Shown here: positions 9,646 to 21,150 of the stretch, piece by piece
How positions within the stretch are numbered: the stretch's first letter is position 1
Layout of the letters: each line of letters starts with the position of its first letter
Source of the DNA: an uncultured Clostridium sp.
Lineage (GTDB): Bacteria; Bacillota; Clostridia; TANB77; CAG-508
Length of the DNA: 64,000 nt
Direction: 5' to 3'
Assembly (NCBI GenBank): GCA_945865665.1
Contig: CAMBEE010000003.1
Coordinates: forward strand, 75,379-139,378
Program-made: the position numbers and the translations under genes
Notes under the pieces: generated by a model
The model's database searches: none
Told to the model about the DNA's origin: nothing
Seen by the model: only the letters and a program-made list of their open reading frames with translations

Positions 9646-11367
9646 ATGAAAGTAAAGAAAAAGAATAAAAGTACAGATTTGAAATCAAAAAATAGTTTAA
9701 AAAAATTATTAAAAAAAGAAGTTAATATAAATGTGAATTTTACAGTAGTAGCAATTGTTTTAATAGCAATTTTTTGTATATGCATTACACCTGTAACTTT
9801 TCAGAATGATACATATTATACAATAAAAATAGGTGAATTAATAAAAAATAACGGAATAGATATGATGGATCATTTTTCTTGGCATGAAAATTTAAGTTAT
9901 ACATATCCACATTGGTTGTATGATTTGTGTACTTATTTAATATATGCTGTTGGAGGATTTAAAGGTATATATATTACAACATGTGCTTTATCAGTAATAT
10001 TAGGTGTATCAATATTTTTAGTTAATTCAAAATTGACTAAAAATAAATCTATATCATTTATTGTAACCATAGGTGCATTATATATGATGGAAAGTTTTAT
10101 TGCTGCAAGAGCTCAATTGGTAACATTTATTTTATTTATTTGGGAATTATTTTGCATTGAGAAATTTATAGAAAATAAAAAGGTTGGATATGGAATAGCT
10201 CTTATTGTAATATCAACATTAATAGCTAATTTACATGTTGCAACTTGGCCATTTTTCTTTGTACTATTTTTACCATATATAGCAGAATATTTAATTGCTG
10301 TAATAGCTGATGTTGTGATTTATGGTAAAATAAATAAATTATTGATAAATATGAAAATGAAAAGAGCCCAAAAGAAAAATGATTTGGACAAGCTAAAAAA
10401 ATTACAGATTTTATTAAATAAACGTGAAGAAAAAAATGAGAAGATTAAAGCAAAAAGAGATAAGGAAAAAGAGAATCCTTATAAAATTAAATTATCAAAA
10501 AATAACAATGTTAAATTTTTAATAATTATAATGATTATATGTGCTCTTACAGGGTTACTAACACCTACTGGAGACACACCTTATACATATTTGTATAAAA
10601 CTATGCAGGGTAATACTACTCAAAATATAAGTGAGCATTTACCAATGACACTTGCTAATAATACAGAGGCAATGTGTATGCTTGTAATTTTCTTAGCAAT
10701 ATTGATTTTTACAAAAACAAAGATAAAATTATCAGATTTATTTATGGTTGCAGGATTATGTTATTTGATGCTATCAACTAGAAGACAAATATCAATGTTT
10801 GTTTTAATATGTTCTGTAGTGCTAACAAGATTAGTTACTAATTTAATTATGCAATATACAAAGAATGGATTGAAAGAAGCAGAAAAAACGGCTAAAAATA
10901 TAGGTGTGGTTGTTTCGTTAACAGTATTAATGGCCTTGATGAGTTATTATTCTGTAAAACCTAAATTTGATGATGAATTTGTTAGTACAAGTACATATCC
11001 GGTTGCTGCGTGTGATTTTATATTGGAAAATATTGATTTAAGTACAGCAAGATTTTATAATGAATATAATTATGGAAGCTACATGTTATTTAGAGGAATA
11101 CCGGTTTTTATAGATTCTAGAGCTGATTTATATGCTCCAGAGTTTAGTGGAAACAAGGAAGAAGATATATTTACAGATTTTATAAATACATCTTCAATAT
11201 CAAAATTTTATGAAGAAACATTTGAAAAGTATAATATAAATTATGTTATATTAGGAAAAAAGTCAAAAACAAATATGATTATAACTAAGACGCATGATGT
11301 AAATTATAAAGAATTATATTCAGACGATAATTTTGTTATATACCAAAGATTAAATGCAAATAAATAG
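9646..11367 (+). CDS. Large polytopic membrane protein with a central charged coiled-coil insert and a C-terminal soluble domain (possibly YfhO/glycosyltransferase-39-like).
   Basis: At least 10 predicted TM helices. ATG at 9646 with RBS AGGAGAGGG. The track start 9622 (TTG) lacks an RBS. Confidence 0.45.
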   Translation: MKVKKKNKSTDLKSKNSLKKLLKKEVNINVNFTVVAIVLIAIFCICITPVTFQNDTYYTIKIGELIKNNGIDMMDHFSWHENLSYTYPHWLYDLCTYLIYAVGGFKGIYITTCALSVILGVSIFLVNSKLTKNKSISFIVTIGALYMMESFIAARAQLVTFILFIWELFCIEKFIENKKVGYGIALIVISTLIANLHVATWPFFFVLFLPYIAEYLIAVIADVVIYGKINKLLINMKMKRAQKKNDLDKLKKLQILLNKREEKNEKIKAKRDKEKENPYKIKLSKNNNVKFLIIIMIICALTGLLTPTGDTPYTYLYKTMQGNTTQNISEHLPMTLANNTEAMCMLVIFLAILIFTKTKIKLSDLFMVAGLCYLMLSTRRQISMFVLICSVVLTRLVTNLIMQYTKNGLKEAEKTAKNIGVVVSLTVLMALMSYYSVKPKFDDEFVSTSTYPVAACDFILENIDLSTARFYNEYNYGSYMLFRGIPVFIDSRADLYAPEFSGNKEEDIFTDFINTSSISKFYEETFEKYNINYVILGKKSKTNMIITKTHDVNYKELYSDDNFVIYQRLNANK

Positions 11368-11430: not shown

Positions 11431-12342
11431 GTGATTTTGATAGTAAATATAAAAGAACAAGATATAGGAAAAAGAATAGATGCATTTTTGGCAGGAAATA
11501 CAGAATTTTCTAGGGCTCATATTCAAAAAATGATAGAAAATGAAAAAGTTTTAGTAAATGGTAAAAAAACTAAGGTATCTTATAAAGTTCAAAAAGATGA
11601 TAAAATAAATGTTGAGGAAGAAATTCCAAAAGAAATATCTTTGGAGGCACAAGACATTCCAATAGATGTTTTATATGAAGATAATGATATTATAGTTGTT
11701 AATAAGCCTAAAGGAATGGTTGTACATCCTGCTAATGGAAATCCAGATGGAACTTTAGTAAATGCTGTTATGGCAATTTGTAAAGACTCTTTATCTGGAA
11801 TAGGCGGAGAAATAAGACCAGGAATTGTACATAGATTAGATAAAGATACATCAGGGGTTATTGTAGTTGCTAAAAATGATAAAGCACATATAAATATGAG
11901 TGAGCAAATAAAAAATCACGAAGTAGAGAAAACATATATAGCTTTAGTAAAGGGATTTGTAAAAGAAGAAGAGGCTACAATTAATATGCCAATTGGTAGA
12001 AGTACTAAAGATAGAAAAAAGATGGCTGTTAATAAAAATGGGAAAAATGCAGTTACTCATTTCAAAGTATTAGAGAGGTTTAGAAATTATACATTATTAG
12101 AGGTTAAAATTGAAACAGGTAGAACTCATCAAATAAGAGTACATTTATCTCAAATTGGCTATCCTGTTGTTGGTGATACAACTTATTCAAATGGAAAAAA
12201 TGAGTGGGGAATAAAAGGACAATGCCTCCATGCTAAGTCATTGAAGTTTAAACATCCAGTTACAGGTAAAGAAATGTTTATTGAGGCACCACTACCTGAA
12301 TATTTTGAAGAAGTATTGCAAGAGTTAAGAAAGGAAAATTAA
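11431..12342 (+). CDS. rluD: RluA-family 23S rRNA pseudouridine synthase with N-terminal S4 domain (RluD-like).
   Basis: HRLDKDTSGV catalytic motif; S4-like N-terminus. GTG start with RBS AAGAGGAAG. Confidence 0.75.
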   Translation: MILIVNIKEQDIGKRIDAFLAGNTEFSRAHIQKMIENEKVLVNGKKTKVSYKVQKDDKINVEEEIPKEISLEAQDIPIDVLYEDNDIIVVNKPKGMVVHPANGNPDGTLVNAVMAICKDSLSGIGGEIRPGIVHRLDKDTSGVIVVAKNDKAHINMSEQIKNHEVEKTYIALVKGFVKEEEATINMPIGRSTKDRKKMAVNKNGKNAVTHFKVLERFRNYTLLEVKIETGRTHQIRVHLSQIGYPVVGDTTYSNGKNEWGIKGQCLHAKSLKFKHPVTGKEMFIEAPLPEYFEEVLQELRKEN

Positions 12343-13064
12343 TGGAAGAAGAAAATATTAGACTACAGAAATTTTTAGCTAATTGTGGAATAGCATCAAG
12401 AAGAAAATGTGAAGAACTAATTTTAGAAGGCAAAGTTTCTGTAAATGGGCAAGTTGTAACTGAATTAGGAACAAAGGTAAATCCAACTGTGGATAAAATT
12501 GAATATTGTGGAAAACTTGTCCACAATTCAGAAAAATTTGTGTATATATTATTAAATAAGCCAATAGGGTATGTTACAACATCAAAAGATCAATTTGATA
12601 GAGATTCGGTTTTGGATTTAGTAAAAGTAAAAGAAAGAGTTGTACCTGTTGGAAGACTTGATATGTACACATCAGGGGCTTTGATTTTAACAAATGATGG
12701 CGATTTTGTTTATAAAGTTACACATCCAAAACATGAAATTACAAAAACATATACAGTCACTGTAAGAGGAATAATTGATAATGACGCTGTGGAAAATTTA
12801 AGAAATGGTGTGGAAATAGAAGATTATATAACAAAACCTGCAAAAGTTAGAATTATGAAGACTGATGAAGAAAAAAATATTTCAAGATTAGAAATAACAA
12901 TTCATGAGGGAAAAAATAGACAAGTTAGAAAAATGTGTGAAGCTGTTGGATACAAGGTTGTTGCATTGCATAGAAGCAAAATTGCAGACATTGGGGTTAA
13001 GGATTTAAAACTCGGAACATGGAGATATTTAAAGGATTTTGAAGTAAAAAAAATACTTAAGTAA
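12342..13064 (+). CDS. rluB: RsuA-family pseudouridine synthase with S4 domain (RluB-like).
   Basis: S4 domain LQKFLANCGIASRRK; catalytic VGRLDMYTSGALILTNDG. Start overlaps the rluD stop (ATGG/TAA). Confidence 0.7.
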   Translation: MEEENIRLQKFLANCGIASRRKCEELILEGKVSVNGQVVTELGTKVNPTVDKIEYCGKLVHNSEKFVYILLNKPIGYVTTSKDQFDRDSVLDLVKVKERVVPVGRLDMYTSGALILTNDGDFVYKVTHPKHEITKTYTVTVRGIIDNDAVENLRNGVEIEDYITKPAKVRIMKTDEEKNISRLEITIHEGKNRQVRKMCEAVGYKVVALHRSKIADIGVKDLKLGTWRYLKDFEVKKILK

Positions 13065-13150
13065 ATTGAGACAATCTGTAAAAATTATTAATATAGATTG
13101 TAGAAGATATATTGTAAACAAAAGATTTTTAAAGTAACAAAGGAGAAAAA

Positions 13151-13630
13151 ATGAAAAATATAGATTTTATAAATGGCGACTTACATGTAGGGCAAAAAGT
13201 AAGTGGAATTGTAAAGAATATCACTAAATATGGAGCTTTTGTTGATATTGGTGGGGGAGTAGTTGGACTGATTTATATTGAAGATTTATCAGTTGCTAGA
13301 ATAAAAACACCTTATGAAAGATTAAATATTGGACAAAAAATAGATATTGTGGTAAAATCTATAGATGAAGAGACAGGAAGAATAAATTTATCTTACAAAG
13401 ATACTTTGGGAACTTGGGAAGAAAATGCTCATAAATTTCAAACAGGGATGAAAACCAAAGGAATAGTAAGAGAAACAGAAAAAAATAAAAATGGAATATT
13501 TATAGAATTAACTCCAAATTTGGTTGGTATGGCAGAATATGAAGAAGGCCTAAATTATGGAGAACAGATAGATATTTGTATAAAGAAAATTGATTATGAC
13601 AAGAAAAAAGTCAAATTAATTATAATGTAA
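13151..13630 (+). CDS. S1 RNA-binding domain protein (YugI/GSP13-like, two S1-type OB folds).
   Basis: GQKVSGIVKNITKYGAFVDIGGGVVGLIYIEDLS S1 signature. RBS AAGGAGAAAAAATG. Confidence 0.65.
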   Translation: MKNIDFINGDLHVGQKVSGIVKNITKYGAFVDIGGGVVGLIYIEDLSVARIKTPYERLNIGQKIDIVVKSIDEETGRINLSYKDTLGTWEENAHKFQTGMKTKGIVRETEKNKNGIFIELTPNLVGMAEYEEGLNYGEQIDICIKKIDYDKKKVKLIIM

Positions 13631-13750: not shown

Positions 13751-14683
13751 ATGGTAGAAGATAATGAAATAAAAGCACAAGTATCACCATTTGCAATAAG
13801 AGAAGGAGAAATTAAAACTTTTGATGGTAAAGATGGCTATGTGTCTATGAACCAAATTGTACATAAGATAAATATAGGTCATATTACGGACATACATTTT
13901 GCTATATTAGATTTAGTAAATGAATTTGAATTTATAACATCAAGACAAATATATCAAATGCTAGAAATTAAAGGAATAGACCCTAAATCTCAAGATAAAT
14001 TAAATAACAAATTAGATGCTTTAGTAAAATCTAAAATATTAACTAGATATTATTTTACATCTGATGAAGGAAAAGGAATTTATAGAATTTATTGTCTAGA
14101 AAAAATGGGAAAATATTTATTAACTTCTAAAGAGGTTGAATGTAAATGGCAACCATCTGATAATACAAAACCAGTTCCAATGATTAAGAAAAGATTAGCT
14201 GGAAACCAAGTATTAATAGCATATTTAAGAAAAGTAAAAGCTTTTGACGGTTATGTTGTTAAACCAGCGATTACAGCAAAAACATTAGGAAAAGTATTTA
14301 AAGCGACAGGTGGTTCTGTAAAACTTTCAAAAAACGGAAAATCAATACAATTCTTATTTGAAGTTTTCAGAAGAGAAATGGACTGGCAAAAGAAATTAGT
14401 TGAAAAAATGAATTTATACAAAGATTTTTATGAGAATTTCCAACCAGGAGATTCTGGATTTACAAGTTTACCACAATTGATTTTTGTTTGTGAAGATGAA
14501 AAACATATGGCTGAATGTTTTAAAGAAATTGTGACTAATAAGGTTGAAATTCCACAAATTAAATTATTGTTTACTACAGATTTAAGACAAAACAAAGAGA
14601 CTTTAGATGATACATTAGTTGAGTTTAAATTGGTTGATGGTAAATATAAAATGGAAGATGTTGAGCTTAAATTGTTAGGATAA
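13751..14683 (+). CDS. Winged-helix DNA-binding protein (plasmid/ICE replication-relaxation-like?). First gene of a possible island.
   Basis: RBS AAGGAGGAATTAAAATG. wHTH-like segment FAILDLVNEFEFITSRQIYQMLEIKGI. No confident family assignment. Confidence 0.35.
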   Translation: MVEDNEIKAQVSPFAIREGEIKTFDGKDGYVSMNQIVHKINIGHITDIHFAILDLVNEFEFITSRQIYQMLEIKGIDPKSQDKLNNKLDALVKSKILTRYYFTSDEGKGIYRIYCLEKMGKYLLTSKEVECKWQPSDNTKPVPMIKKRLAGNQVLIAYLRKVKAFDGYVVKPAITAKTLGKVFKATGGSVKLSKNGKSIQFLFEVFRREMDWQKKLVEKMNLYKDFYENFQPGDSGFTSLPQLIFVCEDEKHMAECFKEIVTNKVEIPQIKLLFTTDLRQNKETLDDTLVEFKLVDGKYKMEDVELKLLG

Positions 14684-14828
14684 TGTTCTTTTTGGAATGG
14701 TTAGCTGTTTGAACAAAGAGGTGTTATAGATAACTTAAGCTTAAGTTTTAGCTCTGTTATTTTTGAGATATTGAGTTTAAAAAGGACATTGTGAGTATAA
14801 AATTGAATTTTATTTTTGGAGGGAACAA

Positions 14829-15506
14829 ATGAAGAAAAATAATTTGTTTAAAAATGCAATTGCTATATCTGTATGTTTTGGAGCTATGGTTCTTTTAGGA
14901 ACTAGTAGCTCTAAAGCTGTTTTGCAATCTAATGGAAATGATGGGGCTACTTATAATTTGAGTGATTGGATGATGAATATTAGAAAAATGGAAGAGCTTG
15001 GTGGAGCGATGGGACTTAGTGAAAATGTCGATTCTAATTTGACATCAAGTAATGGCTCTAATAATATTGATGTTCATATGCAAAAAAATACAGAGTATGG
15101 TGCTTTGGCTATTTTGTCTGCTTCAAGTTATGGAAATCCTAATAAAATAAATAGTGGTGAGACTACTACGGGTAATGCTACTGGGGTTGTGATGAAATTT
15201 AATAATGAGTGGACTGCGGCAGCTTTAAAAGGAACATTTGATAATTATTCTGCAAGATATATAAATGATTATTTACCAAATTATATTGCTAAAAGAGGAG
15301 ATGCTATTACTGAAACCAGTGGATGGCATGGGAGTAGTAATCAGTGGGTTATAGGATTTGAACAGGGGGTAGGAGTTATTAGAAGTTATTTAGGAATTTT
15401 TGGCTCTAAAACTGTTTTTGAAGCTATGAGTTGGGGTGACCATTCGTCAAATATTTTAAATATATATCATTCTCGTGCAGTAGTAGTCCAAGGCGATGGA
15501 ATATAA
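14829..15506 (+). CDS. Secreted protein with signal peptide. Function unknown.
   Basis: MKKNNLFKNAIAISVCFGAMVLLGTSSSKA signal peptide. RBS GGAGGGAACAAATG. Confidence 0.45.
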   Translation: MKKNNLFKNAIAISVCFGAMVLLGTSSSKAVLQSNGNDGATYNLSDWMMNIRKMEELGGAMGLSENVDSNLTSSNGSNNIDVHMQKNTEYGALAILSASSYGNPNKINSGETTTGNATGVVMKFNNEWTAAALKGTFDNYSARYINDYLPNYIAKRGDAITETSGWHGSSNQWVIGFEQGVGVIRSYLGIFGSKTVFEAMSWGDHSSNILNIYHSRAVVVQGDGI

Positions 15507-15548
15507 TTTTTTCTTATTTAAATAAAAAATATAGAAAGGAAAAATTAT

Positions 15549-17813
15549 ATGAAGGCGAAAAAAGAAAAGAAAATAATAAAAAGCAAGAAAAAAATATTTA
15601 TAATAATTGCTGTAGTATTGATTTGCTTATTAATTTTTATACCAATTTTTCAGCATATAGTGAAAATAAATAGAGAAAAGAAAAAGGTAGAAGAATTATC
15701 AGAGTTTTCTTGGGAATCGAAATTGTTTACTGTAAATGATGATTATTCGTATACGTTTTTGTGTCTGGTAACAGTACAAGAAGTAGAAGGAATAGATACA
15801 ATAACATATCAAAAAGATGGTAAAGAAATAACTGTAAATGGGAATGGAAAACAAAAGATTGCTATAGATTTTAATGCAAAGGAAAATACTGATTATGAAT
15901 TTAAAATAAAACCAATAGGAAAAAGTGAAAAAACAAAAATTTTAAATCAAAAACGTAAATTTTCGGGCGAGGGAACATACAAATTGGTTAATGGAGTATA
16001 TGTAAATATACCATTTATGGATAATTTTAATAAGAAATATACAAGATATTTGAAGCCAAAAGATGACCAAACATTAGAACCATCAAATTGGATTTATGAT
16101 TCAGAGCCAGATAATTGGTATGATTATAATAATCAAAAATGGGCTAATGTTTATGTTGAGGCAGAAGGCGTTGAGGCATATTATGTATGGGTTCCAAGAT
16201 ATGTATATAAATTAGATCAAAGTACTCAAAGATCAGATGTTAAATTTGTTGATGTACATAATAATTATACAGATGCTACAACAGGACAAGTTACAATGTT
16301 TAAAGAATTGCTAGAACAAGGATATCAATTGCCTGAGGCATTTACATGGGGAGACAATGATGCAACAGAAATATCAGGATATTGGATTTCTAAATATCAA
16401 CTAAGTGAATTAGCTAAATTTAATATAGATTACAATATGACTGCAGGAAAATCTAGTATAGTTGTAAGTAATTTTACAAACAATGTATCTGAAAAAGCTG
16501 CAAGTTATACATATGCATTAAATGGACAAATAAAAAATACTTCAAATACTTTAGAAGATTATACATTTACGGGTCTTACAGAAAATGAAAGCTATATAGT
16601 AAATGTAACAGCATTAGATGCTAATGGAGCAATAGTTGGAAGTATGACAAAAACATTAGAACCAACTGAGGTTAACCCACCTAAATTAGAGGGATTTGAT
16701 CCTGATACAACATTCTATGTTTATTATGATGAAGATGGAACAGAGCATAATGAAATTCCAATTAGTCAAGATGCTCCAAGTAATTGGTATAATTATACAT
16801 ATTCAAATTGGGCTAATATAGTTACAAGAAATGATGGACTTGAAACATATTATGTGTGGATACCACGTTATCAATATAAATTAAATCAAACAAGTCAAAG
16901 GTCAGATGTTAAATTTATAATGGGAACAGGAACAAATACAGAAACAGGATATCAAATACCAGAAGCTTTTTGGTGGGACAAAAATGATGATGGAAAAGAA
17001 GATGAGGGAGAGCAGTTAACAGGTTATTGGATAACAAAATATCAATTAACAAGAGAAGAAAAAAATGCAAGAATTACTGCAGAATTATCTCCTGCTAGTG
17101 ACTGTATTCATGTAAAAGATATTACAGGAACTTTATTACAAACAACAAATAGTGATGGAAATACTGAAAATGTTCCAATAAAATATGAATATTATCTAAA
17201 TGGTGAATTAAAACATGAAGGTACATCAAGCACAGAAAATTACACATATACTGGATTGAATATAAATACAACATATACTGTAAATATAATCGCTAGAAAT
17301 TCTTCGAAAAATGCTTATGTTGGAGCAATTACAAAAAAGGTTACAACAAAAGTTGCAAATGATCCGGATTTAACAAACTTCAAGAGTAATGGAGATTTGA
17401 AAGCAAGAACATATTATGTTATATATAATGGTGATAGTATAAGTGAATATGTGCCAATAGAACAAGGTGCTCCATCAAATTGGTATGATTATAGTCAAAG
17501 TAAATGGGCAAATATTGTGGTAACTGATGGAAATGTAAGTGGAAATACTATAACAGATGCAACTACAACAAGCTATTTTGTATGGGTTCCACGTTATGAA
17601 TATAAAATCTTAAATTCTGTAAATGATTGGAGTAATTTAGATACTTCAAATGCACGTTCAGATGTTAAATTCTTGAATGGTACAGATAATAATGCTGATG
17701 ATGGTTATCAAATTCCAGAGGCTTTTTGGTGGGATAAAAATGATAATGGAACTGAAGAAGATGGAGAGCAGTTAACAGGTTATTGGATAAGTAAATATCA
17801 ATTGAGTAATTAA
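15549..17813 (+). CDS. Membrane-anchored surface protein carrying three copies of an unrecognised ~115-aa repeat interleaved with Fn3-like domains.
   Basis: N-terminal signal-anchor IFIIIAVVLICLLIFIPIF. Repeat signature NWYDY..QKWANV.....YYVW[VI]PRY.YKL.Q..QRSDVKF......GYQ[LI]PEAF[TW]W.KND...E...QLTGYWI[ST]KYQL[ST] occurs three times. Confidence 0.5.
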   Translation: MKAKKEKKIIKSKKKIFIIIAVVLICLLIFIPIFQHIVKINREKKKVEELSEFSWESKLFTVNDDYSYTFLCLVTVQEVEGIDTITYQKDGKEITVNGNGKQKIAIDFNAKENTDYEFKIKPIGKSEKTKILNQKRKFSGEGTYKLVNGVYVNIPFMDNFNKKYTRYLKPKDDQTLEPSNWIYDSEPDNWYDYNNQKWANVYVEAEGVEAYYVWVPRYVYKLDQSTQRSDVKFVDVHNNYTDATTGQVTMFKELLEQGYQLPEAFTWGDNDATEISGYWISKYQLSELAKFNIDYNMTAGKSSIVVSNFTNNVSEKAASYTYALNGQIKNTSNTLEDYTFTGLTENESYIVNVTALDANGAIVGSMTKTLEPTEVNPPKLEGFDPDTTFYVYYDEDGTEHNEIPISQDAPSNWYNYTYSNWANIVTRNDGLETYYVWIPRYQYKLNQTSQRSDVKFIMGTGTNTETGYQIPEAFWWDKNDDGKEDEGEQLTGYWITKYQLTREEKNARITAELSPASDCIHVKDITGTLLQTTNSDGNTENVPIKYEYYLNGELKHEGTSSTENYTYTGLNINTTYTVNIIARNSSKNAYVGAITKKVTTKVANDPDLTNFKSNGDLKARTYYVIYNGDSISEYVPIEQGAPSNWYDYSQSKWANIVVTDGNVSGNTITDATTTSYFVWVPRYEYKILNSVNDWSNLDTSNARSDVKFLNGTDNNADDGYQIPEAFWWDKNDNGTEEDGEQLTGYWISKYQLSN

Positions 17814-17904
17814 CATCCTATTTTGGCTTGTTATAAATTATTTTGCAAAAAGTAGAGTATACATGCTAAAGAAGAAACTTTTTTATTTGATATGGAGGAA
17901 TGTA

Positions 17905-19704
17905 ATGAAAAATAAAAAAATATTTCTAATAATATTTTTAATTGTTATACTTGGTGGTGGACTGGGTTTGATTGTAAAATTAAATATCACAAAAATAAAA
18001 GTAAAAAAAGAAAAAATACAGGACATATCTTTTTTTCCATATTCAAATAATGATGGATTAATAATTTTAGTCGAGGCAGAGGATTCTGAATATGGTATAA
18101 AAAAGGTTAATTATTATGATAAAAACAAACAAAGTAAAGAAATATATGGATATGGAAAAGAAAAGATTGCATTGGATTATAAAATTGATATACAAGGAGA
18201 ATATAAGTTTTCTTTTGAAAACCAAAATGGGGAAACAATTGAAAAAACGTTAGTTGTTGATGAAAACTATGAACAGAAACTTATAGATATAGATGTTGAG
18301 TCACAAAAAGAATTGGGAACAGAAGTTGAAATTACAATAAATTATAATAATATGCCGTTAAATTCTAAATATTTATATAAAGTTGGTAATAAAGGTGATG
18401 AGTGGAAAGAATATGATGGAGCATTTAAAGTTACATCATATGATGTGTTAGATGGTAATTTACAAAATGAAGATAATAATACAGTTACCATATATGCTAA
18501 AGCTGAAGATAATGTTAATAACAAAATTATAATAACTAAAAATATTGTGAATTTAGATTTAGATATTCCTGAAAAGCCTGAAATTAATGTTATAAAATCA
18601 GATGATTATGCAATGATAACTAGTGATGGAATTATATTAAATAGTGATGTTGAAATCGAGTACGACAAAAGAAATGATATAACTAATTATTATAGTTTAG
18701 ACCAAGGAAAAACATGGATTGTATATAATGGTAAAATAAGTGGAATGAAAAATTGGAGAATTTATGCAAAAAGTGTAAAAAATGATACTGGATTAGAATC
18801 TATATCAATAAAAGAGGCTAATCCTGCAAATAACGATGCGATAGGAGTAAGTGCATATGATAAAGATGAGACTACAAGTTTTACTACGAAATCTTCCGCA
18901 TTTATAAATGTTGATAGTAGTATGATTGGAAAGAATATAAAAGTAAAAATTGATTTAGGAGATTGGGCAGAATATAAGGGAAGTTTGAGATTGTTGGATA
19001 AGAATAATTCTGTAATATATTCTGAGGTGGCTTCGACAGGTACTCATACTATAAATATTATAAATGGAACGTCAAAATTCCAGTTTGCTCCATATAATGC
19101 CTGGGGAGCTCCTGATGAACTAGTGGAAATATCTATAGAGGATGAACCCAAAATAAATATAAATCATTCATATCCCAAAATGACATTAAATGGGGTTGAG
19201 CATTATTATGCAACTGCAACTATAGACTATTGGGAAAATTGTAAAGAAAAATTATATAAAATAAATGATGAAGATTGGAAAATATATAGTAATAGTGATA
19301 TTTTGTTGAGCATAGGAGATATATTATATGCCAAGGGAATAAACCAATTAGGGTATGAAACTAATATTTCAAAATATAATGTCGAATTACCAAATAATGC
19401 AATTGGACCAGAAGCTTATGATAAGAATGACCAGACTTATTTTTCAACCAGGGTATCATCTTATATGGATGTGGATAGTAGTATTGTTGGAAAAGTATTA
19501 AAAGTTAGTATAGTATTATCGGATGATTATTATAAAGCTAATTTAAGATTGTTAGATAAGAATAATGTTATAATAGATACTAAAGTTCTTTATAGTGGTA
19601 TTAACAATATAAATATTCTAGATGGAACGGCGAAAATCCAATTTAATCCATATAATGCGTGGCTTTCGTTAGATAAGTTGATGGAGATATCATTAGAAGA
19701 TTAA
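17905..19704 (+). CDS. Membrane-anchored protein with two ~100-aa C-terminal repeats. Unknown function.
   Basis: ATG 17905 with RBS TGGAGGAA. Signal-anchor IFLIIFLIVILGGGLGLIV. Repeats AIG[VP][SE]AYDK...F.T...S...VDSS[MI][IV]GK...V.I.L.D.......LRLLDKNN..I........G...I.I.DGT.K.QF.PYNAW. Confidence 0.5.
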   Translation: MKNKKIFLIIFLIVILGGGLGLIVKLNITKIKVKKEKIQDISFFPYSNNDGLIILVEAEDSEYGIKKVNYYDKNKQSKEIYGYGKEKIALDYKIDIQGEYKFSFENQNGETIEKTLVVDENYEQKLIDIDVESQKELGTEVEITINYNNMPLNSKYLYKVGNKGDEWKEYDGAFKVTSYDVLDGNLQNEDNNTVTIYAKAEDNVNNKIIITKNIVNLDLDIPEKPEINVIKSDDYAMITSDGIILNSDVEIEYDKRNDITNYYSLDQGKTWIVYNGKISGMKNWRIYAKSVKNDTGLESISIKEANPANNDAIGVSAYDKDETTSFTTKSSAFINVDSSMIGKNIKVKIDLGDWAEYKGSLRLLDKNNSVIYSEVASTGTHTINIINGTSKFQFAPYNAWGAPDELVEISIEDEPKININHSYPKMTLNGVEHYYATATIDYWENCKEKLYKINDEDWKIYSNSDILLSIGDILYAKGINQLGYETNISKYNVELPNNAIGPEAYDKNDQTYFSTRVSSYMDVDSSIVGKVLKVSIVLSDDYYKANLRLLDKNNVIIDTKVLYSGINNINILDGTAKIQFNPYNAWLSLDKLMEISLED

Positions 19705-19907
19705 TGATGGATATTATAAGAAAACTGAGATTGCTGAAATAGTAGTTGAAATATAGTTCAAAAATTGCGAATTGGAAAATGAATTTTCTATTCGCGATTT
19801 TTTATGGGATGATTTTTACACTTGTGTTTTTTTTTAATATATGCTATAATAATAGTTATATATTTAAAATGTACTTGAGTCTAATATAATTATAAGAAGG
19901 AGAAAAT

Positions 19908-20348
19908 ATGATTACAACAAAGTTATTGGAAGCTACTATTGAAAATTTATTAAGAGAAATGAAGAATCGGAATATAGTAAATGAGATTTTTCAGGCAAAA
20001 GATGTAAAGAGCAAATTTTTGGAAGAAAAAGAAGAAATCAAAAACCCGTTACAGGATTTCCAAATAAAAATGGTGCCATTTATAAAGCGTAATGAAGTGC
20101 CTTTCAATGAGATGCCAGGCTTTTTGAATAAAGATACTGTTGTGAATTTTTGTATGGCATTATTGATGACCGGAACAATTGACGATGATGATATAATTTT
20201 GGACTTTGATGGAATGAAAAAATTATTAAATAGTGTTGATGGAAATGATGCTGGAATTGCAGAAAAATTTGAAAACTTTTTGTATAATGAGGGGCGTTCA
20301 TTTTCAGAAATTAATCAAGATGAATTGATAAAAATTCTTTTACTTTAA
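19908..20348 (+). CDS. Hypothetical protein.
   Basis: ORF with RBS AAGGAGAAAATATG. No recognisable motifs. Confidence 0.35.
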   Translation: MITTKLLEATIENLLREMKNRNIVNEIFQAKDVKSKFLEEKEEIKNPLQDFQIKMVPFIKRNEVPFNEMPGFLNKDTVVNFCMALLMTGTIDDDDIILDFDGMKKLLNSVDGNDAGIAEKFENFLYNEGRSFSEINQDELIKILLL

Positions 20349-20395: not shown

Positions 20396-20437
20396 AATAA
20401 GTAGAGAGCATTTTAGGTAATTCCTAAAATGCTTTTT
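20396..20437. terminator. Bidirectional rho-independent terminator overlapping the pflA stop codon.
   Basis: AGCATTTTAGG-TAATT-CCTAAAATGCT hairpin with T/A tracts on both sides. Confidence 0.5.
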
Positions 20438-21150
20438 GCTCTTTTTATATCATCATCATTTGCAACTCGTACACCATCTAATTCATATTTTAGACCTAAC
20501 TTTTCCCATTTATATCTACCCATATCGTGATATGGAAGAACTTCAACTTTATCAACAGTATTTAAACTATCGATAAAATTTTTCAGTTTTAATAAATCTT
20601 GTTCATCATCAGTATAATCAGGAACAAGAACCTGACGAATCCACATATGAATATTGTTTTCACTTAAGTAACGTGCAAAATCAAGTCCCTTTTCATTGCC
20701 AAATCCAACTAAATTTTTGCATTTTTCTGAATCGATATGTTTTATATCTAGTAAAACTAAATCTGTTAAAGAAAGTAATTTTTTTATATCTGGTGTTAAA
20801 GCAACCATACCTGAAGTGTCAACACAAGTATGAATGTTTTCTTTTTTTAGTTTCTCAAATAATTCAATTAGAAATTTGACTTGTAATAAAGGTTCTCCAC
20901 CTGTTACAGTTACACCACCATTTGGATAAATATAATTTTTATATTTCATAATTTTTTCGAATATATCATCTAATGATTTATATTCTCCACCATTCATATT
21001 CCATGTATCTCTGTTATGACAGTATTTACATTGTAGGTGGCACCCTTGTAAAAATAGTACAAATCTTATTCCTGGGCCATCAACTGTTCCAAATGATTCT
21101 ATTGAATGTATTTTTGCGTAGTATTTTAAATCAATATCTTTTTTTTTCAT
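20413..21150 (-). CDS. pflA: Pyruvate formate-lyase activating enzyme (glycyl-radical activase, radical SAM).
   Basis: GCHLQCKYCHNRDTW radical-SAM CxxxCxxC motif. ATG at 21148-21150 (MKKKDIDLKYY) with RBS AGGAGA. The track extension to 21180 runs into the palindromic element. Confidence 0.85.
   Translation of the reverse strand: MKKKDIDLKYYAKIHSIESFGTVDGPGIRFVLFLQGCHLQCKYCHNRDTWNMNGGEYKSLDDIFEKIMKYKNYIYPNGGVTVTGGEPLLQVKFLIELFEKLKKENIHTCVDTSGMVALTPDIKKLLSLTDLVLLDIKHIDSEKCKNLVGFGNEKGLDFARYLSENNIHMWIRQVLVPDYTDDEQDLLKLKNFIDSLNTVDKVEVLPYHDMGRYKWEKLGLKYELDGVRVANDDDIKRAKSILGIT

Follow-up and report, generated by a model that had tools for sequence, protein, structure and literature searches.

A secreted protein and a repeat-bearing membrane protein of uncultured gut Clostridia as candidate fission products of a widespread surface-protein unit

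We analysed a 64,000-nucleotide stretch of DNA (the window) from an uncultured Clostridium sp. (GenBank assembly GCA_945865665.1, contig CAMBEE010000003.1), in which five co-oriented genes, here called g1 to g5, lie between a gene for an S1-domain protein and pflA. The central result concerns g2, which encodes a secreted protein, and g3, which encodes a membrane-anchored protein with three copies of an undescribed module of ~125 amino acids (aa). Judged by sequence comparison, g2 is a homologue of a domain that is covalently joined to the g3 module in relatives, a relation that a first-pass annotation of the window, which had listed g2 as a secreted protein, missed. The two genes are a pair conserved on the chromosomes of uncultured gut Clostridia, and the gene-fission link for which their sequences argue is a new result. 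We propose that g3 is a trivalent membrane scaffold displaying secreted, fast-evolving g2 binding subunits, a reading to which we give an even chance.

Relatives in which the g3 module and the g2 domain are fused

The BLASTP alignment of g2 with residues 447-639 of the relative P0258 extends over 208 aa with 38% identity (E=3e-28), and in P0258 a module at residues 298-430 is followed at once by the g2-like domain at residues 431-639. Hidden Markov models (HMMs) of the module (M) and of the g2-family domain (C) alternate as M-C-M-C in P0203, P0239, P0237 and P0227, with five module and C-domain units in each of the first two, four in P0237 and, in P0227, four modules with a C-domain detected after three of them. 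The same order holds in all 43 module-bearing open reading frames (ORFs) retained from the loci of 'Bacilli' metagenome-assembled genomes (MAGs), where the module precedes a C-domain of 237-301 aa; in the fused relatives the C-domain after the module measures ~200-280 aa. The start of mature g2 (AVLQSNG...) aligns with 'IAVQNEA' of P0258, ~8 residues past the last strand of the module. Across g2 homologues, fused units and Bacilli C-domains (alignment A4), H78, K81, T149-G150-N151, G154 and G217 are among the invariant residues, and the motifs HMxKNxE[WY]GA..YLSxSxYG, [ST]TTGNxxG, GDAxxE, R[GS] and SRAV are common to all three groups. In the split form, g2 lies directly upstream of g3 in ten of ten loci, with g2 identity down to 40% and across no fewer than five genomic contexts; the gap between the two genes is 42 nt in the window. 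Because g2 is homologous to the fused C-domain, because the order of module and C-domain is strict, and because the split point lies at their junction, g2 and g3 appear to descend from one gene that split between module and C-domain.

The four proteins with alternating units are giants (P0203, 4,516 aa; P0239, 4,340 aa; P0237, 3,713 aa; P0227, 2,338 aa) in which the 4-5 tandem units stand beside BNR/Asp-box, CHB_HEX_C, Reelin subrepeat-B, DUF7743, Big_12 and bacterial Ig-like domains, and P0258 combines its single unit with Listeria-Bacteroides (Flg_new) repeats. In the 'uncultured Bacilli' Hadza MAGs CAKOIB01, CAKOJO01, CAKOLK01 and CAKOQD01 (loci L011-L053), dozens of paralogous loci occur per genome. 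Their proteins, of 430-1,065 aa, have a prepilin-like N-terminus (KGFALAE...), one module, the sequence 'LTGIWVGKFE' and then a ~280-aa FGE-like C-domain with motifs like 'STTGNVYGIYDMSGGANEYV'. The start of this C-domain (LTGIWVGKFEVSSDT.CT...GCNLQTIRP.IKPNVTSWRGAQVGT) is nearly identical among the paralogues, and the N-terminal parts vary in length. Two of these proteins match Dockerin type I upstream of the module, one at residues 125-182 with 24.4 bits against a cutoff of 22.9 (L016, 9404-11260) and one at residues 245-297 with 18.4 bits (L021, 9080-11290), which may be a sign that these proteins attach to a cohesin-bearing scaffold.

The g3 module

The modules of g3 align with one another with Smith-Waterman z-scores against shuffled sequences of 29.7 (modules 1 and 2), 25.3 (modules 1 and 3) and 46.3 (modules 2 and 3). 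The three copies that the first-pass annotation had described, now delimited at ~125 aa, are borne out by these scores, the motif blocks it had listed are visible in the three-way alignment, and the alternation with Fn3-like domains holds as well: the spacers align with each other at z=13.1, and g3 passes the Pfam fn3 model (PF00041; 29.7 bits vs a cutoff of 25, E=7.5e-7), with matches in two stretches. The first-pass annotation could assign the repeats of g3 and g4 to no known family, and scans of g1-g5 against Pfam, NCBIfam and PHROGs agree, giving no significant model for either set of repeats and no mapping to a well-described Pfam family. Single-sequence searches of the PDB with g1-g4 gave nothing meaningful.

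At least 719 homologues of g3 were found, none of them named. A profile of the module (alignment A1) matches 2,329 cluster representatives at E<=1e-3 among 1.84 billion, the size of the family being counted here as clusters at 50% identity (~2,300), and none of the matches examined carries a functional name. There are up to seven copies of the module per protein, and some carriers are giants of 2-4.5 thousand residues. The AlphaFold2 model of module 2 is confident (mean pLDDT 86.5, pTM 0.77) and has six beta-strands; Foldseek found no structural counterpart for it, the best E-values being 1.2 in the PDB and 0.22 in BFVD. Eight aromatic residues of the module are invariant (W41, Y44, W65, Y69, Y96, F102, Y121 and W122), and W, Y and F together make up 13.5% of g3. 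The sequence searches indicate that the ~125-aa module is an undescribed, widespread domain that has no Pfam model, and the predicted structure suggests that it may be structurally new.

Conserved and hypervariable halves of g2

The g2 gene, separated from g1 by a 145-nt spacer, has the ribosome-binding site GGAGGG, and its product begins with a hydrophobic segment with a cleavage site between SKA and V, so that mature g2 is predicted to comprise residues 31-225, which contain no cysteine. Among its 652 standalone homologues none has a functional name. Column entropy across 110 homologues divides the mature protein in two: conservation is strong over residues 31-120 (0.2-0.9 bits) and gives way to hypervariability, of length as well as sequence, over residues 121-210 (1.5-3.4 bits), after which comes a conserved terminal strand. 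The gene-wide dN/dS is 0.21-0.53 for g2 vs 0.12-0.20 for g3.

This layout mirrors that of the variable proteins of diversity-generating retroelements (DGRs), a resemblance in pattern only. A DGR as the source of the hypervariability was ruled out for the window: a sensitive blastn search with the 3' region of g2 against the whole window found no copy of >=40 nt at >=80% identity that could serve as a template repeat, and no window ORF of >200 aa has the YxDD motif of a reverse transcriptase. Because the window has neither a template repeat nor a reverse-transcriptase-like ORF, the diversity of g2 would arise by ordinary mutation and selection.

Distant similarity of the C-domain to FGE-type C-type lectins

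The fused relative P0227 scores above the cutoff of the FGE-sulfatase model PF03781 (43.9 bits vs 23.3, E=3e-11); single units score 14-20 bits, below that cutoff, and five of ten scanned sequences match profile positions ~127-221 with E=5e-4 to 0.03. In profile searches of the PDB, alignment A4 retrieved 5vf4 at E=0.16 and PvdO (5hha) at E=1.3, both sub-threshold and through the same motifs, and the whole-unit profile A5 retrieved 5vf4 at E=0.062, which is not significant. The structure 5VF4 is TaqVP, a DGR variable protein of Thermus aquaticus with an FGE-type C-type-lectin (CLec) fold, in which the CLec domain begins at residue 112, the region before it wraps the domain, and the ligand-binding, variable site lies between beta3 and the C-terminal beta5 (PMC6328139). 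The alignment of the g2/C-domain family to TaqVP starts at residue 112, at the very start of the CLec domain. HMMER places the end of the module, HPAF...GIWVGKF, on residues 58-76 of TaqVP (HPAFVVG...IWIGQF), a match that is collinear and not significant alone.

From these sequence similarities we regard g2 and the C-domain as probably, if distantly, FGE-sulfatase/C-type-lectin-like. The label is probable and not established because the signals are coherent and none is significant for g2 itself. In the AlphaFold model of a natural fusion the C-domain has a pLDDT of 35-60; because of this low confidence the Foldseek search with the fused-unit model is uninformative, its PorK/N rows at E~3-4 being noise, and the lectin fold rests on sub-threshold sequence similarity.

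Conservation of the locus and of g1

The window comes from a low-GC gut bacterium, and the loci closest to its cluster belong to UMGS1516, Hadza MAGs and Clostridium sp. CAG:575. Eight loci or more (L001, L002, L003, L005, L054-L056 and L058) have the same S1-g1-g2-g3-pflA-pflB order, with g2 identity down to 51-54%, and g2-g3 pairs stand in other genomic contexts in L004, L007, L008 and L059. Across the cluster there is no shift in GC, a search for direct and inverted repeats found no direct repeats flanking it, and no recombinase-sized ORF lies between the S1 gene and pflA. A megablast comparison of the cluster with plasmids and phages gave no match, and scans of viral contigs for the g3 module and for g2 gave no relatives. 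Only the slot that separates g3 from pflA differs among the loci: L058 has g4 and g5, whereas L001, L002, L003 and L054 lack them, nothing fills the slot in L001, and it holds g4 and small ORFs in the window and in L058. In L003, the closest relative, a 399-aa ORF with a Walker-A-like motif, GIRRCGKST (12404-13603), replaces g4 and g5. The first-pass annotation had taken the cluster for an accessory island. That view is largely wrong for g1-g3, which form a conserved chromosomal locus, syntenic across species, and not an accessory or strain-specific island; only g4 and g5, patchy among the relatives, behave as optional cargo.

The protein g1, described at first as a winged helix-turn-helix (HTH) protein, does have HTH-level matches (within residues 38-107) and can be placed more specifically in the Replic_Relax family, since it passes the PF13814 threshold (32.3 bits vs 25.3, E=1.3e-7, model positions 1-184 of 191); in its orthologues the precomputed PF13814 matches are marked weak or faint. 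The PADLOC scan found only HTH-level matches at g1 residues 40-101 and nothing beyond a generic HTH, and a known anti-phage defence system was set aside on this result. Members of the Replic_Relax family, described from plasmids, join an HTH to a PD-(D/E)XK nuclease-fold domain and are predicted to be transcriptional regulators (PMC3424549). On the domain assignment in this family literature, g1 would consist of an N-terminal winged HTH and a PD-(D/E)XK-type domain.

Orthologues of g1 occur in L001-L005, L054 and L058, always directly after the S1-domain gene (with a 20-nt gap in L054). Across species g1 is 92-99% identical and has a dN/dS of 0.02-0.07, the same as PflB. The plasmid or mobile context of the family was not found for g1, which has chromosomal S1-pflA synteny in at least eight loci and no plasmid or phage DNA match; it behaves as a strongly constrained core chromosomal gene and not as a mobile relic. 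Because g2-g3 pairs occur without g1 beside them in L004, L007, L008 and L059, g1 is not an obligate partner of the pair. It is possibly a local regulator of the locus.

A proposed surface display and its alternatives

One N-terminal hydrophobic segment was found in each of g2, g3 and g4 in a hydropathy scan, and a regular-expression and hydropathy scan of the three proteins gave no LPXTG-like motif or sortase-type C-terminus. The predicted N-terminal anchors of g3 and g4 and the signal peptide of g2 place all three outside the cytoplasm, as the first-pass annotation had supposed, and the surface-binding role that it suggested seems the most reasonable reading of the sequences. In our proposal, an ancestral composite unit, wide in gut Firmicutes, would have consisted of the ~125-aa beta-rich module followed directly by an FGE-type C-type-lectin-like domain. 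After fission of the gene, g3 would have kept only the modules, and g2 would be the lectin-like domain exported alone by a Sec signal peptide. The three modules of g3, set apart by Fn3-like spacers and held by an N-terminal membrane anchor, would form a stalk on which secreted g2 might dock non-covalently by its conserved N-terminal half, up to three per scaffold, so that the hypervariable C-terminal half would be exposed as a ligand-binding surface. The outcome would be an adhesin or receptor on the cell surface that changes its specificity fast, by ordinary mutation and not by a DGR, and g4 would be an optional second anchored protein combining a g3-type N-terminal domain with small beta-sandwich-like repeats. 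We suggest, more tentatively, that this could be an undescribed two-component surface display, in which a docking domain with an unsolved fold on a scaffold captures secreted FGE-type CLec subunits whose ligand-binding half hyper-diversifies between strains without a DGR.

Several points weigh against the scaffold proposal. The physical interaction of g2 with g3 is our inference, and the correlation between the divergences of the two genes across loci (r=0.86, n=10) could merely reflect phylogeny. The module folds confidently alone and may be autonomous, with no need of a partner, and the proposal does not account for the ratio of one g2 to three g3 modules. For the lectin-like part, the C-domain is poorly modelled even in the natural fusion, the PDB matches of its profiles are not significant (E=0.06-1.3), and g2 itself has no Pfam match at E<=1, PF03781 included.

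The main rival makes g2 and g3 functionally independent descendants of the fission: g3 would be a self-sufficient adhesin whose aromatic-rich modules bind a ligand (e.g., a glycan) themselves, g2 would be soluble and diffuse away, and the adjacency of the two genes would reflect only shared regulation or history. The prediction of the module as a compact autonomous beta domain, its many invariant aromatics in a protein so rich in W, Y and F, and its multiplication up to seven times per protein with no intervening C-domains all fit this picture. However, a C-domain comes directly after the module in all fused proteins examined, g2 and g3 lie side by side in all ten loci across different genomic contexts, the terminal motif of the module is kept in the split form, and the N-terminal half of g2 is conserved far beyond the needs of a freely evolving soluble binder, so we consider independence unlikely, if a serious contender. 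A catalytic role is far harder to defend. The distant similarity to the FGE-sulfatase family could mean that g2 is an FGE-like enzyme or another catalyst acting on surface or secreted substrates while tethered by g3, but because mature g2 has no cysteine, and hence lacks the FGE catalytic cysteines, it is not an FGE enzyme, and that function was rejected. The region that matches the FGE active site and the DGR variable region is, moreover, the hypervariable part of g2, and non-enzymatic FGE-type CLec proteins are well known (PMC6328139); a catalytic g2 is to us the least credible of the alternatives.

The N-termini of some relatives bring in a pilus. The g3 homologues of L007 and L008 start with the pilin-like 'GITLIALVITIIIL', L011 has a 'KGFALAEILAV' N-terminus with weak ComGD/E/F matches, and P0410, a relative of g4, has a weak N_methyl match. 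In L007 (9437-11803), L008 (9482-11809) and P0410 we observed a common degenerate pilin-like N-terminus, GITLIALVITIIILxILxG...GxNGxI, with Ala at the canonical Glu5; because P0410 belongs with g4 and shares the N-terminus of g3 homologues, the two families seem to swap N-terminal anchoring devices. That g3 and g4 are type IV pilus- or pseudopilus-associated proteins of the minor-pilin-like tip kind, with g2 as an accessory, is nevertheless very improbable: in the window both have plain lysine-rich N-termini and a transmembrane (TM) segment and lack the class III signal peptide motif G-[FIM]-T-L-[IL]-E, the stretch from the S1 gene to pflB has no genes for pilus assembly, and the pilin-like matches in relatives are all below the curated cutoffs. 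We find it very improbable that the cluster is a horizontally acquired accessory island, the remnant of a mobile element led by a plasmid-type Replic_Relax gene and encoding adhesins. Such an origin would suit the description of the g1 family from plasmids and mobilisable elements, the presence of g4 and g5 in only some relatives, the other cargo in the L003 slot and the g2-g3 pairs in other contexts. It sits badly with an S1-g1-g2-g3-pflA order conserved across species while g2 identity falls to 51%, with the low dN/dS of g1, with the unshifted GC, with the lack of flanking direct repeats or a recombinase-sized ORF between the S1 gene and pflA, and with the lack of plasmid, phage or viral-contig relatives, and for g1-g3 it is already largely refuted.

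g4, g5 and the layout of the locus

The four co-oriented genes of the first-pass annotation, g1 to g4, are all real plus-strand ORFs in the places it gave, to which g5 is to be added before the terminator that faces pflA (Table 1). The terminator that had been placed after the last gene exists as a hairpin after g4, but g4 is not the last gene, as g5 follows. Upstream, the flank is the S1-domain gene (PF00575, E=5e-18); downstream, it is the convergent pflA/pflB, and Radical_SAM and PFL-like/Gly_radical domains were seen in the syntenic loci.

Table 1. Positions of the genes, domains and terminator-like hairpins of the g1-g5 locus in the window
Feature	Position	Strand	Description
g1	13751-14683	+	310 aa, Replic_Relax family
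g2	14829-15506	+	225 aa, secreted
g2 hypervariable region	15189-15458	+	residues ~121-210; precedes conserved C-terminal strand SRAVVVQG
g3	15549-17813	+	754 aa; TM segment, ~90-aa N-terminal domain, module 1, Fn3-like, module 2, Fn3-like, module 3
g3 module 1	15999-16409	+	residues 151-287; A1 profile E=6e-52; z=29.7 vs module 2
Fn3-like spacer 1	16410-16664	+	best Pfam fn3 stretch, residues 279-360; z=13.1 vs spacer 2
g3 module 2 (modelled copy)	16665-17054	+	residues 373-502; AlphaFold2 mean pLDDT 86.5
Fn3/Ig-like spacer 2	17055-17363	+	second fn3 stretch; Ig_ILCR1 residues 493-587, E=2.3e-5 (below cutoff)
g3 module 3	17364-17810	+	residues 606-754; A1 profile E=1.6e-47; z=46.3 vs module 2; protein ends at GYWISKYQLSN strand
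g4	17905-19704 (longest ORF from 17863, 613 aa)	+	599 aa, membrane-anchored
g4 repeat 1	18817-19152	+	~110-aa repeat; Smith-Waterman, homologue comparison
g4 repeat 2	19381-19701	+	~110-aa repeat; Smith-Waterman, homologue comparison
Terminator-like hairpin after g4	19760-19806	+	19-bp stem then U-run; RNA fold -16.6 kcal/mol, z=-3.55
g5	19908-20348	+	146 aa, predicted cytoplasmic
Bidirectional terminator-like hairpin between g5 and convergent pflA	20400-20440	.	inverted repeat I8

For g4, the two repeats of the first-pass annotation are genuine (residues 301-427 vs 489-613, 63/125 identities, z=39.5 in Smith-Waterman comparison with shuffles), and the length of 613 aa is to be corrected: a product of 599 aa starts at the ATG of 17905, which GGAGGA precedes by 5 nt, whereas the start at 17863 has no ribosome-binding site, and the homologue P0390, 599 aa long and 99% identical to g4, supports the later start. 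The N-terminal anchor and domain of g4 are similar to those of g3 (z=9.6) and paralogous with them; a 23-nt stretch just past the start of g4 (17911-17933) matches g3 15585-15607 with 91% identity, reflecting these paralogous N-termini. Only 22 homologues of g4 were found, with 1-3 repeats each. The repeat opens with the pattern AYDG[DN]..T...VDxSxxGK and weakly matches the TIGR04566 TraA N-terminal domain (E=7.8e-7, 29 bits vs a cutoff of 80). GBD_IRG7_N (0.011) and Mucin_bdg (0.026) match weakly in three of 14 homologous g4-type repeats, P0410 reaches 33.4 bits for Mucin_bdg in sum with no single stretch passing, and the g4 repeat profile found no match in the PDB. A small galactose-binding-like beta-sandwich is a reasonable guess for the repeat from these matches, and g4 as a whole is an optional second anchored protein in the slot after g3. 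In L001, downstream of pflB, an ORF on the minus strand (17261-17920) shares 29% identity with g4 over the first 230 g4 residues, which indicates further members of the g4-type anchored family elsewhere in these genomes.

No family match was found for g5 in Pfam, NCBIfam or PHROGs. Weak relatives of g5 stand in the same slot of L005 (11726-12133) and L058 (11481-11930), with 27-30% identity by tblastn. Small acidic cytoplasmic ORFs of ~146-150 aa recur between the surface-protein genes and pflA, and L058 has a second one at 12111-12563. Elsewhere in the window, a 581-aa polytopic membrane protein is encoded at 9622-11367, upstream of pseudouridine synthase genes, and is syntenic in L001-L003 with 74-90% identity.

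Significance

If the two-component display exists, it would be a non-retroelement counterpart of the display of DGR variable proteins, born from the fission of a unit with more than 2,000 sequence clusters. The host group comprises abundant, uncultured gut Clostridia and Bacilli with small genomes, whose surface biology is essentially unknown. The composite unit from which the fission would derive is massively expanded in some uncultured gut Firmicutes, with dozens of module-protein paralogues per genome in some MAGs, and defining the module family would annotate thousands of 'hypothetical' surface proteins. The split between module and lectin-like domain offers a testable hypothesis for how these bacteria assemble and diversify surface binders, and would link them to the C-type-lectin scaffold, which nature has used repeatedly for hypervariable ligand recognition. 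Separately, the strong constraint on g1 and its core chromosomal place do not fit the plasmid-centred description of the Replic_Relax family.

Comparison with known systems

The kinds of locus already known are the C-type-lectin/FGE-type surface binders and the pilin-like large surface proteins of Firmicutes. The latter, which include ComG-type minor pilins, are like g3 and g4 extracellular and free of a sortase signal, and relatives of both g3 and g4 have pilin-like N-termini, but g3 and g4 of the window use ordinary signal-anchors and a common ~90-aa domain, with no pilus genes nearby; a literature search found no matching description of a family joining a pilin to an FGE/CLec domain in Firmicutes. 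With Replic_Relax (PF13814), g1 has in common a score above the gathering threshold and the HTH plus nuclease-fold family with its predicted regulator role, and it differs in being single-copy, syntenic, chromosomal and under strong purifying selection beside housekeeping genes, and not on a plasmid or integrative and mobilizable element. Cohesin-dockerin scaffoldins are a functional analogy only: they too have an anchored protein with repeated docking modules (putative in g3) and spacers, and separately secreted subunits encoded alongside, whereas they have no sequence relationship or demonstrated structural relationship to g3 or g2, for which docking is a proposal. The proteins of the PF03781 family, FGE and PvdO, have in common with the C-domain family the helix motif xEW..A and the motif G[VI]YDMxGNxxE[WY]V, the fused relative P0227 passes the cutoff of the family, and PvdO is the second PDB match; g2 has no PF03781 match and no cysteines, is much shorter, and is hypervariable in its C-terminal half.

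There is also a likeness to the FGE-type CLec variable proteins of DGRs (TaqVP 5VF4, TvpA and Mtd), among which TaqVP is the best PDB profile match to the g2/C-domain family. In TaqVP a region before the CLec domain wraps it, and the g2 family likewise has an N-terminal accessory region; in the DGR variable proteins the variability lies just before a conserved C-terminal strand, as it does in g2, and they are extracellular or surface binders. The similarity is sub-threshold (E=0.06-0.16), and, unlike a DGR, the g2 window has no reverse transcriptase and no pair of template and variable repeats. A further difference is that g2 is a separate secreted polypeptide, and its accessory region would be the repeated module carried by another protein, g3.

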